DNA of 62,948 bases, counting the filler. It is 14 parts of 14 records of this genome, joined end to end, with 100 filler letters (N's around TTAATTAATTAA, not from the genome) between each part and the next. Parts side by side here need not be neighbours in the genome. Positions count along the whole stretch, not along the records: positions 51,356 to 55,863 come from SRR15195285_7712; 13 more parts are not named here. One strand, given 5' to 3'. Below, in pieces: positions 2,438 through 59,786 of this stretch. The translations under genes and the position numbers were made by a program. A model generated the notes under the pieces. That model ran no database searches. It saw only the letters and a program-made list of their open reading frames with translations, and had not been told where the DNA came from. Position 1 is the stretch's first letter. Each line of letters opens with the position of its first letter.

Positions 2438-3172
2438 TTACTGTTCAGGTGGCTCGCCCTCTTCCGCTGTGGGCGCGGGTGGCACCTCCGCCCCTCCCTC
2501 ACTCGCACCAGCTCCCGCCTCCTCCGCGGCCGCCTCCGGCTCGGTCTCTGACTCGGTCTCCGGTTCGGCGGATGACTCAGGAAGCTCCAGGCCCATCAAC
2601 ACAAAGTCCTGCTCGATGTTCCCTGTGAACGATCGATGGCAACGCAAGGGCATAACAGGACGGCAAGGTCAGGCGCAGCAAGATAGAAAGACTAGCGCGC
2701 AGGTTTGGCTGTCCTCACAGTCCTAGCTGTCCTAGCAGGCAGGCCTGGCACGCCGGCACGAGGACAGGCTGTCCTAGCAGACAGGCAGGCATGCAGGCGG
2801 GCAGGTGGGCGATTGGCGCACGCACCCATTTTGAGGTCAACATAGACCGCGAGCAGCTGCTGCTGGTTGATCCCTTCCCTCCCAGTGGAGCCGACCTGCA
2901 TGCAGACTGTCACGTACTCGTCCTCTGTCACCGAGCCGCCAGTCTTACGCGCAAGCTCCTGCACCTCGTGGCAGAGCAGCACGCCGTCCCTGCGAACCAA
3001 ACAAACGCAGCAGCCCTCTCTTTGCTTAGAGCTGTCGAAACGAAACTGCCGTCTGTAAAACACGATTAGTTGCCCAGGTAGGCTCGGGACAAAAAACATT
3101 TAGGCGTGCATTGAAAGCAAAACATGGTGCTGTGTTTCGCACCGGTCCTGATCCAATGCATCGAACATCACC
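2438..3172 (-). CDS. EF-hand protein, 3' part (5' end lost at contig edge)
   Basis: Exons 3172-3143, 2989-2826 and 2622-2438, joined by GT-AG introns, give VMFDALDQDRDGVLLCHEVQEL (canonical EF loop)...LLAVYVDLKMGNIEQDFVLMGLEL, followed by an acidic PE-rich tail. Confidence 0.75.
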
Positions 3173-3229
3173 CTGTTGCGCACCACACACAAACGCCGCG
3201 TGTCATGAATGTGACGGGAAGGGCCGTCG

Positions 3230-3274: not shown

Positions 3275-3374
3275 NNNNNNNNNNNNNNNNNNNNNNNNNN
3301 NNNNNNNNNNNNNNNNNNTTAATTAATTAANNNNNNNNNNNNNNNNNNNNNNNNNNNNNNNNNNNNNNNNNNNN
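3275..3374. other. Artificial contig linker (N44-TTAATTAATTAA-N44), first of 13
   Basis: The identical 100-nt spacer, with stops in all six frames, also occurs at 6493-6592, 10128-10227, 13361-13460, 19074-19173, 23815-23914, 33642-33741, 37033-37132, 41773-41872, 47777-47876, 51256-51355, 55864-55963 and 59687-59786. Confidence 0.99.
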
Positions 3375-6492: not shown

Positions 6493-6682
6493 NNNNNNNN
6501 NNNNNNNNNNNNNNNNNNNNNNNNNNNNNNNNNNNNTTAATTAATTAANNNNNNNNNNNNNNNNNNNNNNNNNNNNNNNNNNNNNNNNNNNNGGGATTGG
6601 AGACTTTCCCGCCCGTGAGCCGCCACTGTAATCGATCCTGTTCGCTTGGCAGTGTTCCTCCTAACTCTCCCTTGTAAACATC

Positions 6683-10127: not shown

Positions 10128-10227
10128 NNNNNNNNNNNNNNNNNNNNNNNNNNNNNNNNNNNNNNNNNNNNTTAATTAATTAANNNNNNNNNNNNNNNNN
10201 NNNNNNNNNNNNNNNNNNNNNNNNNNN

Positions 10228-51355: not shown

Positions 51356-51378
51356 GGGCATAAGGGCCCCTTATGCCC
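51356..51378. repeat. Perfect inverted repeat (11-bp arms, 1-nt spacer)
   Basis: GGGCATAAGGG-C-CCCTTATGCCC at the contig start. Confidence 0.9.
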
Positions 51379-51939
51379 GGTGTCAGCACTGGGAACTACT
51401 ATATACATGTAGTAGCATTCTTAGGCTATAGCTAGTAAGCGGATTGAGAATATTATAGTGGGTACACACAATTTGATCATACGTTCGATTCGAATACTCG
51501 TATTCATAATCATATTCATAACATGTACACGCTGTACAAGTTCCACGCGCGGCGGATCTCAGGCTCACGCGTGGCGTTCGGAACGCCGCGCCGTTGTGGC
51601 ATCAAGGGGAGACTCGCCTTGCCCTCGGTGGTATGTCGCATGGCGCTGCATTTTGCGTAGGCCACCAAACCGGGCGCCCAAGTGCACTAGGGCTAGGGGC
51701 GTCGTCTTACGCCAAGTGTGGCCACAAACGACGAGAATGTATATACCGTGTTTTTTTGAGCTTTTAAAAAATGGGTTGTGCGCGGGTAAGCTCGACTTAT
51801 GGGGCCGCTCATTGTAACGTAGACACAAGAAATGTGGTCGGGTTTAGTACACCCGCACGCGACCGCTTCGCATACATTGACTTTTGAGCTGGTAGTTGCA
51901 TCAGGCGAGCCTGCCTGACCAAAAGCTCTCGCCTGCGCG

Positions 51940-54900
51940 TCAATGCGTGTCCGGCGAGAAGTGATTTGCGCAGCCATCTTGGCAACTCGCAACCCCCTCG
52001 CACCCACCTTTCTTAGAACACTCTTGCGGCGGTGTCACGCTCGCGCACTGATCGCACATTTGCAGCGTGACATTCTTGAGCTTGTAGTTGCAGTGTCCAC
52101 CAGCTGCAGCACAAGCAGCTTTGCATGTGGCGAGGTTGGTCGACACCTGCGCGAGAGCGCAGCCTTGATAGCATGATGGTTGGTTGCAACCACTGACCAT
52201 GTTGGCACAGCAGTGGCCCTCGCGCCAGCAATGTCCAATGCACGTGTCTGGAAATGTCGGTGGTGGCTGAGGGGGCAGTGGAGCCGGAGGTGGTGGTGGT
52301 GGAGCTGGAAGCGGTGGCAAGTCTAGCTTTTCTCGGGCCCAACCGATCAAAGTATCGTCATCCGGAATCTCGTAAACAGCGCTCCCAGCATCGCTCCCAC
52401 TCGCAAGCCACGTCGAGGCAAGCACAGGACCCGCGCAGCTCATAGTCATGTTCCCAGGAATCTTCGGATCGCCGAAGTACTCGTTATCGTGCATTGTCAG
52501 CCCACACACAGTCGAGGGAGCAACTCCCAGACCTGGGGATGGTTTGCCACGGCCTGGGCAGTCGCAGCCTCCGGTACTGCCGATATTCTTCGAAGCGGTT
52601 AGAACACACTTGTTCTTATACCACCCGACGCCATGTCCAGCTAGGAAGCCTCCGGCATTTACACAATTCTGTCCATCGCTGTCTCCGACATAGACGATGT
52701 TGTCATGAAATGCACTGTCGTGGCCGCCGTAGTCCATCTTCCAGCCTGTTGGGCACGCCCAGAAAATGGCGCCGTCAAACTTGTTGCGAATGTTCCGTCC
52801 TGATAACGATGTGGAAGCTACGTCAAACTTACCATCGGCCATGAACATGAAGTTATCGTGTATATCATACCAGCTGCTGCCATCGTCGGTATCAAACCCC
52901 TGACGAAAAAAATACGCTTGTTATTGTGCTGAAAGTTTTACCTGATATGTGGGTTGAAGCGTTTACCTGACTCGCTCCATAATTGGCAATAATCATATTG
53001 TGGCTGACGTGATTCATCTCTGCAGTATAGGATGGGTACCCATACTTGACGTCCGAGATGAAAGCGTTGCGATCCCAACTGTTAATTGGGCCTAGCAGTC
53101 AGTCACACAGCATGGTATTACACAAACAAGATGGACGCTACAGACGGCCAGCAGCCTCGGTACACTTCTTGTCATCTCACCGTGGTCCCCTGAGAGTCAG
53201 CCACACAACTGGTTACGATTCGTGGGAGTACAAAAGGCTCGTCTGCTAACAGTTATGAGATATTGATCATACCAGTCTCACGACACGTATTAAACCTGCG
53301 AACGTGCAGGCAGGTAAGTCCAGTGAACAGGCTTAATGCACAGGCGTGCTCACAGTAAACAATGTGGCGGGAGGGGGTAACGTTTAATGCACAGGCGTGT
53401 TCACAATAAGTTTCGACTGGCGTTCGTCCCCCCCCCGAATCCATCTGCGCAGTTAGCACACTTAGTCAGAGATAGTCAAAGTTGACCTGACGTAGGGATG
53501 ATAGTGACAAGTATCACCGTTGAAGTTGATCGCGGCCCTGAGTTGCAAAGGCACGGCTGGGTCAGGATCACATTTGCCCTTGCCCTCAATCACATTAGTG
53601 TACAATTCGACTCACCTTGGCTGGTTGAACGCCACATTTGAGTCAATGTTGGTCAAGCAAGTCTTAGCCTGAAACCACATTGAGCTCTGCTTCTCGATGA
53701 TTCCAATTTCACGTACGTAGTTGCGCTCAATGGAAGTATACCGAGGCTGCTGCCCGTCTGTACCGTCCATCTCGTTTGTGTAACCCCAGCCTGCCATCGC
53801 GCTCAGCCCGAGCCAGGCGAACTCGTTGTCGGCAAATGTCGTGTATCGATTGTAGCCGCTGACAAACAGTGCGTTGTTGTCGACCCGCAAAAATGAGCAG
53901 TGCTTTACAACACATCCTTCAGTCCCTTCAAAAAATACGGCGCCACCCCGATATAGCCCCCAGTCACCTCCACTCGGGACGCCCCAAGGTTCCATTGTGG
54001 TGTCAGCAGCATCCCTGAATTTGATCCCTTGGATCGTTACGTTCTTGATCGGGTCTGACATTGTTGAGTTGATCGAGATGAGAGTTTGCAGCTTCCCAGC
54101 CACAAGTCTGAAACACCAGAGCACCCTTGTCAGACACACAGCAGTTGCACTGGAATGCAGCATTCTCAGGACGTACCTTATCTTTGGGTCCGGTGGTGCA
54201 GGCTGACCATGCAGGGTCGCGTTCGGGATCATGTACAGCTTGTGTGTAGCCACATCGTAGAAGTACTCGTTTGGTGCATCTAGAGCCTCGCTGTAAGCAA
54301 ACGGAGCGCCCAGACCAATACACAAAACGTGACTATTTGCCCCTGAAAACAGGCTAATCCACGGCTGGACACACTTACCGGACGTTCTCGATCATCCACT
54401 TTCCCGCGAGCAGATAGTTGTCTGTCGTTGAATTGATGTTTTCGTGATTAACCTGCCACCCTCGCCCTCCTTGCCACCCGCCTTTCACCCACCCCCCAGC
54501 TGTCTTGGCAAACTCCACTGAATTGCCCTCCTTCTTTGCGATTTCAAACATGTTAACAAACCAGCCTTGCGCGCGCCAGACGTGCATGACTCCTCCCGCC
54601 GGATCCGTCCACTCTGCGATGTCTGGGTGCTGCTCAGGATCGAAGTCGAAGCCAACAGGCAGTGCAGGGGAGAGCCCTTGCGCTTCGTTGCCTTGGCGTG
54701 GATCATCGTAGCCGACCCAGCCACCAGCACTCGAGTTGCCGCAGAAATAATTGCCCATCGGGCCATACGGGCTCGCGTCACCCGACCAAGGGCTGCAGCA
54801 GCCCCCATGCCCGTTTGAGTAGGTATTGTAGCTGTCCCACATCGCTGAGTCGTTCTTGCATGGCGTTCCATCAGGCAGCTCGTGCTGCGAGTTGCAGTCG

Positions 54901-55733
54901 ACTAAGTTCTTGTACACGACTCGAGCTTTGCCGATGCACGACAAATCCTTATGCCATAGCTTCGGAGCGCCGTCGTTCCAACAGTCCGTGCACAGCTCTG
55001 GATTGCCGTTCGGATACCTTGAGCGCGTGATTCGAGTGTGGGGCTCCAGAGTCTGCAGGCCGGCAATGACCGGTGTCGTGCTCGCAGGTAGTTCGGCAAC
55101 GTATGCCCCGTGCTTATCGCCGGTGACCTTTGTCCACGTGAGCTCGGGCAGCAGCTCTCCGCCGCTGATATATGCCTCCTCCTCGCCGCTGGGGACGCCA
55201 CTGATGGTCAGTCCGGAATCACTTGGCGTCAGGTCTAGCGTTTCTTGTAGGTAATGCACACCGCCACGTAAGATCATGGTGCGCGGTCCCGGCGACTTGC
55301 GCAAGACGGCGAGCGCACCCGTGATCGTGGCAAACGGGGCTTTCGCACCGCCAGCTGCTGATCCATTATTGTCACTGCCCTTGGCAGGGTCCACGAAGAC
55401 TGTCGTGCCGGCAGAGCTTACGTTGAGCTTGATTGGCGGCAGCGGCGTATTGGCTGGACGCGTGATACCGCAGCTCTCCAGCTCCAGTGCGTCGAACGAT
55501 TCGATCTGCGGGGCGCGCAGCGGGATGAGCGACAGACCAAACTCATACGCCAAGAGGCGTCCGTGGCATTCCGTAGTGTTCAGGATGCTGCCCTCGGTCG
55601 TGTTCGAGTGCTTCCGGCACTCGCCTCGCGCGCAGGCCGCCTGCAGCTCCGAGCGCATGCGTGGGATGGAGTCGACTGCAGCGTCGCTAGCAGCGGCCAG
55701 GTGGATGATCAGAAGCAGGCAGCGGGCCTGCAT
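51940..55733 (-). CDS. Secreted right-handed beta-helix (pectin-lyase fold, GH141-like) protein with Pro linker and Cys-rich C-terminal domain
   Basis: Signal peptide; VFVDPAKGSD...PFATITGA, ILRGGVHYL, RSRYPN, GGWQGGRG, EALDAPNEYFY, SGGDW, NQPRAAINFNDGFGGG, FNTCRETGDHGPINSWDR, DTDDGSSWY. It includes micro-exons of 20, 40, 23 and 9 nt between 53181 and 53537. Confidence 0.8.
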
Positions 55734-56163
55734 CGAGCAGCCAGCCACGCCACGCCTGCACTGACCCGGGCGCGGTGCTACGCGCGCCGCGCATACGTAC
55801 GTCGCGCGCGCCGACGCGCGGCGATACCGCACCCATTGCCCAAGTCCGTGGGTTATGAACCCGNNNNNNNNNNNNNNNNNNNNNNNNNNNNNNNNNNNNN
55901 NNNNNNNTTAATTAATTAANNNNNNNNNNNNNNNNNNNNNNNNNNNNNNNNNNNNNNNNNNNNCGCAATATCAGTCCCGACGGTGGGCTGGGTATCAGTG
56001 AGTTTTCCGAATCCCAAGCGAATCCAACCCAGCCTGATGCCTGTGACGATGATGGCCAAAAGAGGTCGCCCCAATTTCGGCCTCATAGTGTTGAGTGGGG
56101 CGTGTACGCACTAGCAGGCGGCGGCTCAGCTCGCAGCGGCCAGGGAGAGTGAGGCTCGTGCGG

Positions 56164-59686: not shown

Positions 59687-59786
59687 NNNNNNNNNNNNNN
59701 NNNNNNNNNNNNNNNNNNNNNNNNNNNNNNTTAATTAATTAANNNNNNNNNNNNNNNNNNNNNNNNNNNNNNNNNNNNNNNNNNNN

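Follow-up and report, generated by a model that had tools for sequence, protein, structure and literature searches.

Intron 7 of a minus-strand gene on contig SRR15195285_7712 is largely a slightly decayed inverted copy of an exon of the same gene, and ~60% of its 89 nucleotides (nt) can be traced to exon 3, ~565 nt away. The contig (4508 nt, positions 51356-55863) comes from an uncultured marine eukaryote (protist) and is part of the whole stretch of DNA analysed here, referred to as the window, which comprises 62,948 nt. The window consists of 14 contigs (3.1-9.7 kb) joined by spacers of the form N(44)-TTAATTAATTAA-N(44), situated at 3275-3374, 6493-6592, 10128-10227 ... 55864-55963 and 59687-59786; the apparent linkage across any spacer is therefore not real. 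All positions below count along the window, unless a related locus is named. The best reading is that intron 7 is a lineage-specific spliceosomal intron, whose interior copies 51-61 nt of exon 3 in inverted orientation and is decaying neutrally. A fold-back or template-switch repair event may have created the intron, a proposal that is favoured here only tentatively.

The repeat consists of two arms on the minus strand, the intron arm (53108..53168), which is an antisense copy of exon-3 sequence, and the exon arm (53733..53793), which is the source and encodes (A)GWGYTNEMDGTDGQQPRYTS within exon 3, a peptide conserved in all homologues. In a repeat search, the arms are 61 nt long, 87% complementary and 564 nt apart. 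Direct comparison of the arms gives 53/61 identical positions, comprising a core of 47/51 (53118-53168 against 53733-53783) and a weaker flank of 6/10 (53108-53117), with no similarity past either end. The sequence-only reading had proposed a 51-nt antisense match within an 89-nt intron, and the match is borne out, as the core of a longer arm and far beyond chance. In a self-BLAST of the 4508-nt contig, the arm pair reaches E = 3.1e-15, and the next best hit is a palindrome at 3e-6; the alignment of intron 7 with antisense exon 3 scores 82, a value reached by 0/300 shuffles. The other eight introns show no match to exon 3 on either strand, the lowest shuffle count among them being 15/300, and intron 6, considered as an older exon-3 copy, was ruled out, with 297/300 shuffles scoring as well.

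The search for further copies and similar introns covered the 14 window contigs and a comparison set of 80 related metagenome loci (229,778 nt, designated by L numbers), retrieved with an exon-3 profile. Neither the 62,948-base window nor any of the 80 loci contains a second copy of the core, and no other non-palindromic inverted repeat at E <= 1e-3 is found in any of the 14 window contigs. Among the 80 loci, the only other such inverted repeat is 54 nt long, 100% identical and located at the end of contig L071 (L071 1-54 and 288-341), where it touches the contig end; in contrast to the exon 3/intron 7 repeat, it looks like an amplification or assembly chimera.

The inverted repeat of exon 3 and intron 7 is real and not an assembly artefact. 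A 1338-nt contig from another study (X2) spans 52864-54202, with its parts ordered and oriented as in the window; its 11 substitutions and single gap all lie outside intron 7 and the exon arm. In a third study (X3), both arms are covered, on two contigs, again with no differences in the arms. Furthermore, the repeat is internal to its contig and 87% rather than 100% identical, and the gene is colinear with its homologues across the repeat. A chimera or misassembly, named beforehand as the refutation of the finding, was examined and did not apply, the contigs of the other studies reproducing both arms unchanged. The contig is also common in marine metagenomes: among 23 listed runs, 19 contain some or all of it and 10 at least half of its sampled words, the runs spanning 16 studies. 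In two DNA runs, no contig that skips 53092-53180, as expected of an intron-less allele, was found, and contigs drop rare variants.

Intron 7 (minus strand, 53092..53180 in the homology gene model) begins with GTGAGA, ends with TAG and carries a branch-point-like CTGAC motif 10 nt before its end. It lies in phase 1 and interrupts a Gly codon between DH and GPINSW. Its removal restores the conserved frame ..CRETGDHGPINSWDR.., as read in 50/80 loci and in the homologous protein P0001, and its retention leads to a frameshift and a stop (open reading frame 53092..53196). With GT..AG ends, a branch-point-like motif and a restored frame, intron 7 has the sequence features of a U2-type intron and is probably spliceosomal; the gene would be functional only through the splicing-out of the 89 nt. 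In addition, the ~330 residues downstream of intron 7 are still conserved (55% identity to P0001, 77% to L001), and therefore the intron must presumably be removed efficiently despite the RNA duplex described below. The contigs of one run labelled as RNA (X9) are unspliced at all introns that they cross, namely 8, 7 (5′ end), 6, 5, 4 and 3, and leave 53097-53140 uncovered; X9 therefore says nothing about splicing. The RNA contigs of X15 cover 7/30 bins, and only the joint of intron 9 is visible, where one contig shows the removal of the intron as an 87-nt GT..AG skip.

At its 3′ end, intron 7 resembles other introns of the gene. The 62,948 bases contain the motif TGTGTGNCTGAC at exactly three places, 53098-53109, 53196-53207 and 54129-54140 on the minus strand, which are the 3′ ends of introns 7, 6 and 2; the motif may represent branch-site context or shared ancestry. 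The tail of intron 7 matches the tail of intron 6 with a score that 0/1000 shuffles reach. A 3′ end copied from intron 6 was nevertheless rejected, as the local score of introns 6 and 7 (23) stands beside 22 for introns 1 and 5 and 20 for introns 2 and 4; the global score of introns 6 and 7 is also not an outlier among intron pairs.

The direction of copying was examined codon by codon over 63 positions, with the copy compared with its own exon and with relatives. The copy is identical to its own exon at 52/63 positions, to L001 at 45/63 and to five other loci at 36-41/63. Four differences found only in the copy would alter conserved residues, GGT>TAT (G>Y), GAG>AAG (E>K) and GGT>GCT (G>A). 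Such changes at conserved codons would be untenable for an exon under selection, and the source is therefore exon 3, whose arm consists of ancestral coding sequence with GWGYTNEMDGTDGQQPRYTS conserved across the family. Simultaneously, the copy shares one state (GGC, TAC) with L001, L016 and L019 at two synonymous sites, GGG/GGC and TAT/TAC, at which the exon differs; as these two states are ancestral, the exon changed after copying. On this codon comparison, exon 3 is shown as the template, and the copy was made on the window lineage after the split from L001. The copy and the exon have since accumulated ~8-13% neutral divergence, and the nucleotide identity between the window and L001 is 72-77%. 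Judged by these values, the copy is not very recent, yet much younger than the L001 split. The recent, templated, inverted capture put forward in the sequence-only reading holds as templated, inverted, derived from the exon and later than the L001 split, and the word recent needs qualifying in view of the ~8-13% divergence.

The closest relative found, L001 (protein identity 85% and 77% over two blocks), reads CRETGDHGPINSW uninterrupted at the intron 7 site. It reads through the positions of introns 1, 2, 3, 5, 6, 7, 8 and 9, possesses one intron located 2 nt from the intron 4 position and a private one within the Arg codon of TCRET, and contains no inverted repeat. An apparent extension of BLAST homology from intron 7 to an L001 intron was discarded as a scoring artefact. 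At the DH|GP site, 50/80 loci read through with GDHG uninterrupted, many of them probably spliced transcripts and so silent on introns; L076 reads through as well, by eye, and ~23 other loci end before the site or are unresolved by the patterns used. In a quick tree of 70 rows (in which L054 is labelled along with L053, the site itself having been read in L053), the window groups with L001, L004 and L016 (support 99), within a clade of 20 rows (support 96). Intron 7 is borne by no other row of this clade, and the character needs three changes on the tree. About 10 of the 20 rows are genomic; the introns were checked by eye in L001, L010 and L017/18, and in L002, L003, L007, L014, L015, L019 and L027 they were flagged by tblastn gaps only. 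As to whether orthologues lack the intron, a check named in the sequence-only reading, the close relatives do: L001 and the clade's other genomic rows read through this conserved site.

Introns near the site occur in several relatives, at 2 nt (L061), 5 nt (L017/18) and 9 nt (L010) upstream of the intron 7 position. An intron sits exactly at the intron 6 position in L010 and 4 nt off that position in L017/18, and all three are without intron 7. Loss of an intron 5-9 nt from a retained one would need an improbably precise deletion, and primary absence is therefore likelier. The gene family shows lineage-specific introns that cluster in swarms, with only a few bases between neighbouring positions, and this pattern points to frequent independent gains or to sliding. 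One such cluster lies at the INFN|D codons, where L001, L016 and the window have introns at three positions within 3 nt (AA|C, AAC| and AACG|), by sliding or by repeated gain at a hot spot. Two further candidates for shared positions were rejected: the introns of L011 and L080 lie 5 and ~3 codons upstream of the intron 8 position, and an L016 intron lies 13 nt away from the intron 1 position.

In the favoured account, a break or replication stall would have arisen at the CACG^GCCC codon boundary. A 3′ end would then have moved, by fold-back or by a template switch, to exon 3, which lies ~565 nt upstream on the same strand; exon 3 would have been copied in reverse orientation, and the product would have been joined to the other end, creation of intron 7 being the likeliest outcome of such an event. 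Fold-back or template-switch synthesis, in the course of break repair or of replication restart, probably fits an inverted cis copy best, under creation or remodelling alike. Creation is favoured because of the phylogenetic distribution, the age of the copy and the small part of the intron that is not exon-derived, which amounts to only 28-38 nt, less than the shortest intron of the gene (67 nt). Several observations weigh against creation. The first 12 nt of intron 7 (GTGAGATGACAA, with the 5′ splice site) and its last 16-26 nt (..TGTGTGACTGACTGCTAG, with the branch point and the 3′ splice site) are not exon-derived and resemble ordinary intron ends of the same gene, and such ends therefore fit an older intron with a replaced middle. 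As flanking direct repeats, only G|G is common to both intron 7 junctions, and the ends of the copy show no clean microhomology: one end may carry a CAA/TTG match that skips 2 nt, the other has the 6/10 tail, and both are limited by the ~10% divergence. L042 (intron of 205 nt) and L053 (apparent GC-AG ends), which are ~45% identical to the window and belong to other clades, have introns at the same position and phase as intron 7. Moreover, L001 is without 8/9 introns of the window gene, and the intron 6 position is common to the window and L010, so the L001 lineage may have lost introns. The ~565-nt loop is also much longer than the 41-nt loop studied in yeast, as far as the yeast experiments are described (PMC11724301), and intron 7 is seen spliced in no RNA contig.

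A serious, less probable reading is that a pre-existing intron, either ancestral or gained earlier in the lineage by the process behind its other lineage-specific introns, was later broken and repaired with the inverted exon-3 copy, which took the place of most of the interior, its old ends being spared. The splice signals lie outside the copy, and the likeness of the ends of introns 6 and 7 (23) is no more than that of other pairs (22, 20). This reading also accommodates the introns of L042 and L053 at the identical position and the seven other introns that are absent from L001 and have no visible source; insertions inside an intron would be neutral and would fix easily. Remodelling requires, however, that a single place on one branch underwent two events, with a deletion at the same time, as only 28-38 non-copy nt are left, and no relative of the 20-row clade has the intron, including L010 and L017/18 with an intron 5-9 nt away. 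Gain and remodelling had been offered side by side in the sequence-only reading, and both are kept, in view of the splice signals outside the copy and the site shared with L042 and L053. A source in trans is very unlikely: a fragment derived from complementary DNA (cDNA) or antisense RNA, or a loose DNA fragment of the gene, would have been ligated in inverted orientation as end-joining filler. The copy is confined to one exon, which is compatible with a cDNA origin, and the cited texts describe mitochondrial and ribosomal RNA (rRNA) filler in new introns of Daphnia and Drosophila (PMC4202315; PMC3296678), but a random fragment would rarely come from 565 nt off in the same gene, and this proximity argues for a cis origin. 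Least probable of all is a mobile element, such as an introner or miniature inverted-repeat transposable element matching the exon by chance, or an amplification or assembly chimera. The two 90%-identical copies of ~170 nt in L011 show that intron-generating elements exist in hosts of the family, and L071 exhibits the chimera pattern (54 nt, 100% identical, contig end). Against an element stand the ancestral coding nature of the exon arm, the single copy of the core in the window and the 80 loci, and the ends of intron 7, at which neither terminal inverted repeats nor a target duplication were found; against a chimera stand the internal position of the repeat, its 87% identity and its recovery in contigs from two other studies. 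Creation of intron 7 by templated repair is retained as the tentative preference.

On the pre-mRNA, the two arms are predicted to form a duplex of ~56 bp: of the 61 positions, 53 would form Watson-Crick pairs and 3 would form G-U pairs, and 5 would be mismatched. The duplex energy is -108 to -112 kcal/mol, compared with a median of -39.6 and a next best of -54.7 for other 76-nt transcript windows. In the predicted minimum-energy fold of the 731-nt stretch, the duplex is used (-295.7 kcal/mol, z = -9.5, 0/20 shuffles as stable), and the loop would hold the last 117 nt of exon 3, introns 3-6 and four micro-exons. The duplex of ~50 bp looping out four micro-exons, anticipated in the sequence-only reading, is thus strongly predicted in silico, and the gene model confirms the four micro-exons (20, 40, 23 and 9 nt) between the arms. 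It is improbable that this duplex is maintained and functional, controlling the splicing of the micro-exons or yielding regulatory double-stranded RNA (dsRNA) or small RNAs. The predicted stability would speak for such a role, as would the two transition differences, both of which give G-U pairs, and the arms without differences in the X2 and X3 contigs; however, at 11 differences per 1338 nt only ~1 is expected in the 122 nt of the arms, and zero is uninformative. The duplex is absent from L001 and from all 80 related loci, the differences between the arms resemble neutral decay, with five true mismatches, and skipping of the four micro-exons would remove 92 nt and shift the frame. Intron 7 alone has no unusual fold (z = +1.4), and a search of Rfam gave no family match, one hit at E = 0.72 having been disregarded. 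The exon-intron complementarity is best regarded as a by-product of the copying and not as an adaptation.

Intron 7 is a variant of known processes, not a new kind of system. In the tandem-duplication model of intron origin, an exon segment with AGGT is duplicated directly and adjacently, and the duplicate supplies the splice sites. Intron 7 likewise derives from an exon of its own gene, but as an inverted copy at a distance of 565 nt, and neither of its splice sites comes from that copy. In Daphnia pulex, where intron gain by break repair is established, 90 new introns with a mean length of 77.7 bp have been described; in the account cited, the source was rarely identifiable (4 weak matches among the 90 introns, plus mitochondrial or rRNA matches), 33/90 carried flanking direct repeats of 4-12 bp, and parallel, unrelated gains at identical sites were described (PMC4202315). 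In Drosophila, intron gain by break repair with mitochondrial filler DNA has been proposed in the text cited (PMC3296678). Similar to these neointrons as described there, intron 7 is short, seamless in conserved coding sequence and read through in close relatives; unlike them, it has the inverted exon of its own gene as its source and no flanking repeat.

In yeast, experiments have shown fold-back inverted insertions of 2 to ~150 bp at breaks, primed at one end and end-joined at the other (PMC11724301), and insertions of the type templated by break-induced replication that is mediated by microhomology (MMBIR) are described in human genomes (PMC8421209). Intron 7 shares with them an inverted cis copy of nearby sequence, tens of bases long and at a single site. 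As described there, such insertions are somatic or experimental and mostly shorter than 34 bp, with templates no more than tens of bases from the break, whereas the copy in intron 7 is fixed in a natural population, has its template ~565 nt away and forms the body of an intron. Multi-copy families are formed by introners and by symmetrical stwintrons, the latter carrying terminal inverted repeats of 45-55 nt (PMC8469720). By that description, intron 7 resembles them as a lineage-specific, seamless intron in a setting of fast intron turnover, with long complementary stretches able to form dsRNA, and differs from them as a single-copy intron within the searched sequence, whose partner is an exon of the host gene; their repeats are intra-intron. 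In searches of full-text literature and in a 2012 review, supplementary files apart, no case turned up of an intron whose body had been copied, inverted, from an exon of the host gene.

The gene occupies the contig as a single minus-strand gene, whose homology model (51940..55733) comprises 10 exons and 9 introns of 67-109 nt, all GT..AG, and encodes 1016 amino acids (aa). The model was built by tblastn with P0001, P0002 and P0009, followed by explicit junction placement. The first exon matches 15 longer relatives, the best of which is P0001 (1028 aa, a transcriptome-assembly protein, 68% identity), and the model protein shares 69.5% identity with this transcript-derived protein over 1006 aa, with 11 gaps. 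All features of the model lie on the minus strand. Exon 1 (55733-54379) and exon 2 (54290-54177) precede exon 3 (53616..54107, 492 nt), which lies in the beta-helix region, as indicated by a weak PF13229 match and the gene model. It is followed by four consecutive micro-exons that encode a highly conserved motif: micro-exon 4 (53518..53537, 20 nt, AAINFN, supported by homologue comparison as well), micro-exon 5 (53405..53444, 40 nt, DGFGGGTNASRNL), micro-exon 6 (53273..53295, 23 nt, FNTCRET) and micro-exon 7 (53181..53189, 9 nt, GGGACCACG), which encodes parts of G-D-H-G and is situated between introns 6 and 7. Exon 8 (52967..53091, 125 nt) encodes GPINSWDRNAF...ANYGASQ, and exon 9 (52899-52833) and exon 10 (52745-51940) complete the gene. 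The spliced block NQPR|AAINFN|DGFGGGTNASRNL|FNTCRET|GDH|GPINSWDR is kept in 10/10 inspectable homologues. The encoded protein may be a secreted-looking right-handed beta-helix of the GH141 / DUF1565 / Pel9A-like kind: the sole Pfam match is Beta_helix (PF13229), below the cut-off, and the Protein Atlas leads are bacterial GH141/DUF1565-like beta-helix clusters only.

Other repeats were observed in the contig and in relatives. Intron 5 contains a 26-nt direct repeat (24/26) at 53333-53358 and 53384-53409, 51 nt apart, and its first 21 nt, including the 5′ splice site, recur inside the intron as GTGAGCACGCC..; this repeat suggests intron growth by tandem duplication, and splicing from the second 5′ splice site would lead to a stop. 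Coding exon 8 contains an imperfect 50-nt palindrome (76%; 53013-53062), and a near-perfect 23-nt palindrome lies at the very start of the contig (51356-51378). In the case of L042, the intron at 2984-3188 of that locus holds three tandem copies of a ~24-nt unit, and the intron of L053 lies at about 925-1010 of that locus. L011, a 61%-identical relative, reads CRESGAMNAWDR at about 2200-2215 of its own sequence, exactly the 9 nt of micro-exon 7 (G-D-H) being missing, and this gap could be the scar of an imprecise intron loss. Inside the gene of L011, two 90%-identical element copies (2029-2195 and 2793-2970; 167 and 178 nt) are flanked by AACCA and GTGC; they have an introner-like look and are absent from the window and the other loci.

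The origin of new spliceosomal introns is an old open question, and the source sequence is almost never recognisable. In intron 7, the source, the direction of copying and the relative age can all be read from the sequence. The value of the finding is limited to a single case from an uncultured organism, in which splicing is deduced from the gene structure and creation and remodelling are not separated. Within this scope, intron 7 provides concrete support for repair-templated intron formation, or at least for intron turnover of this kind, and defines a search for introns that match nearby exons in antisense, which can be run on intron-rich protist genomes. Intron 7 may represent the birth of an intron with a legible source, spliceable from the start, and the event would also have made the 9-nt micro-exon. 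If this is true, local templated repair, and not transposons alone, would work as a source of new introns in this lineage.

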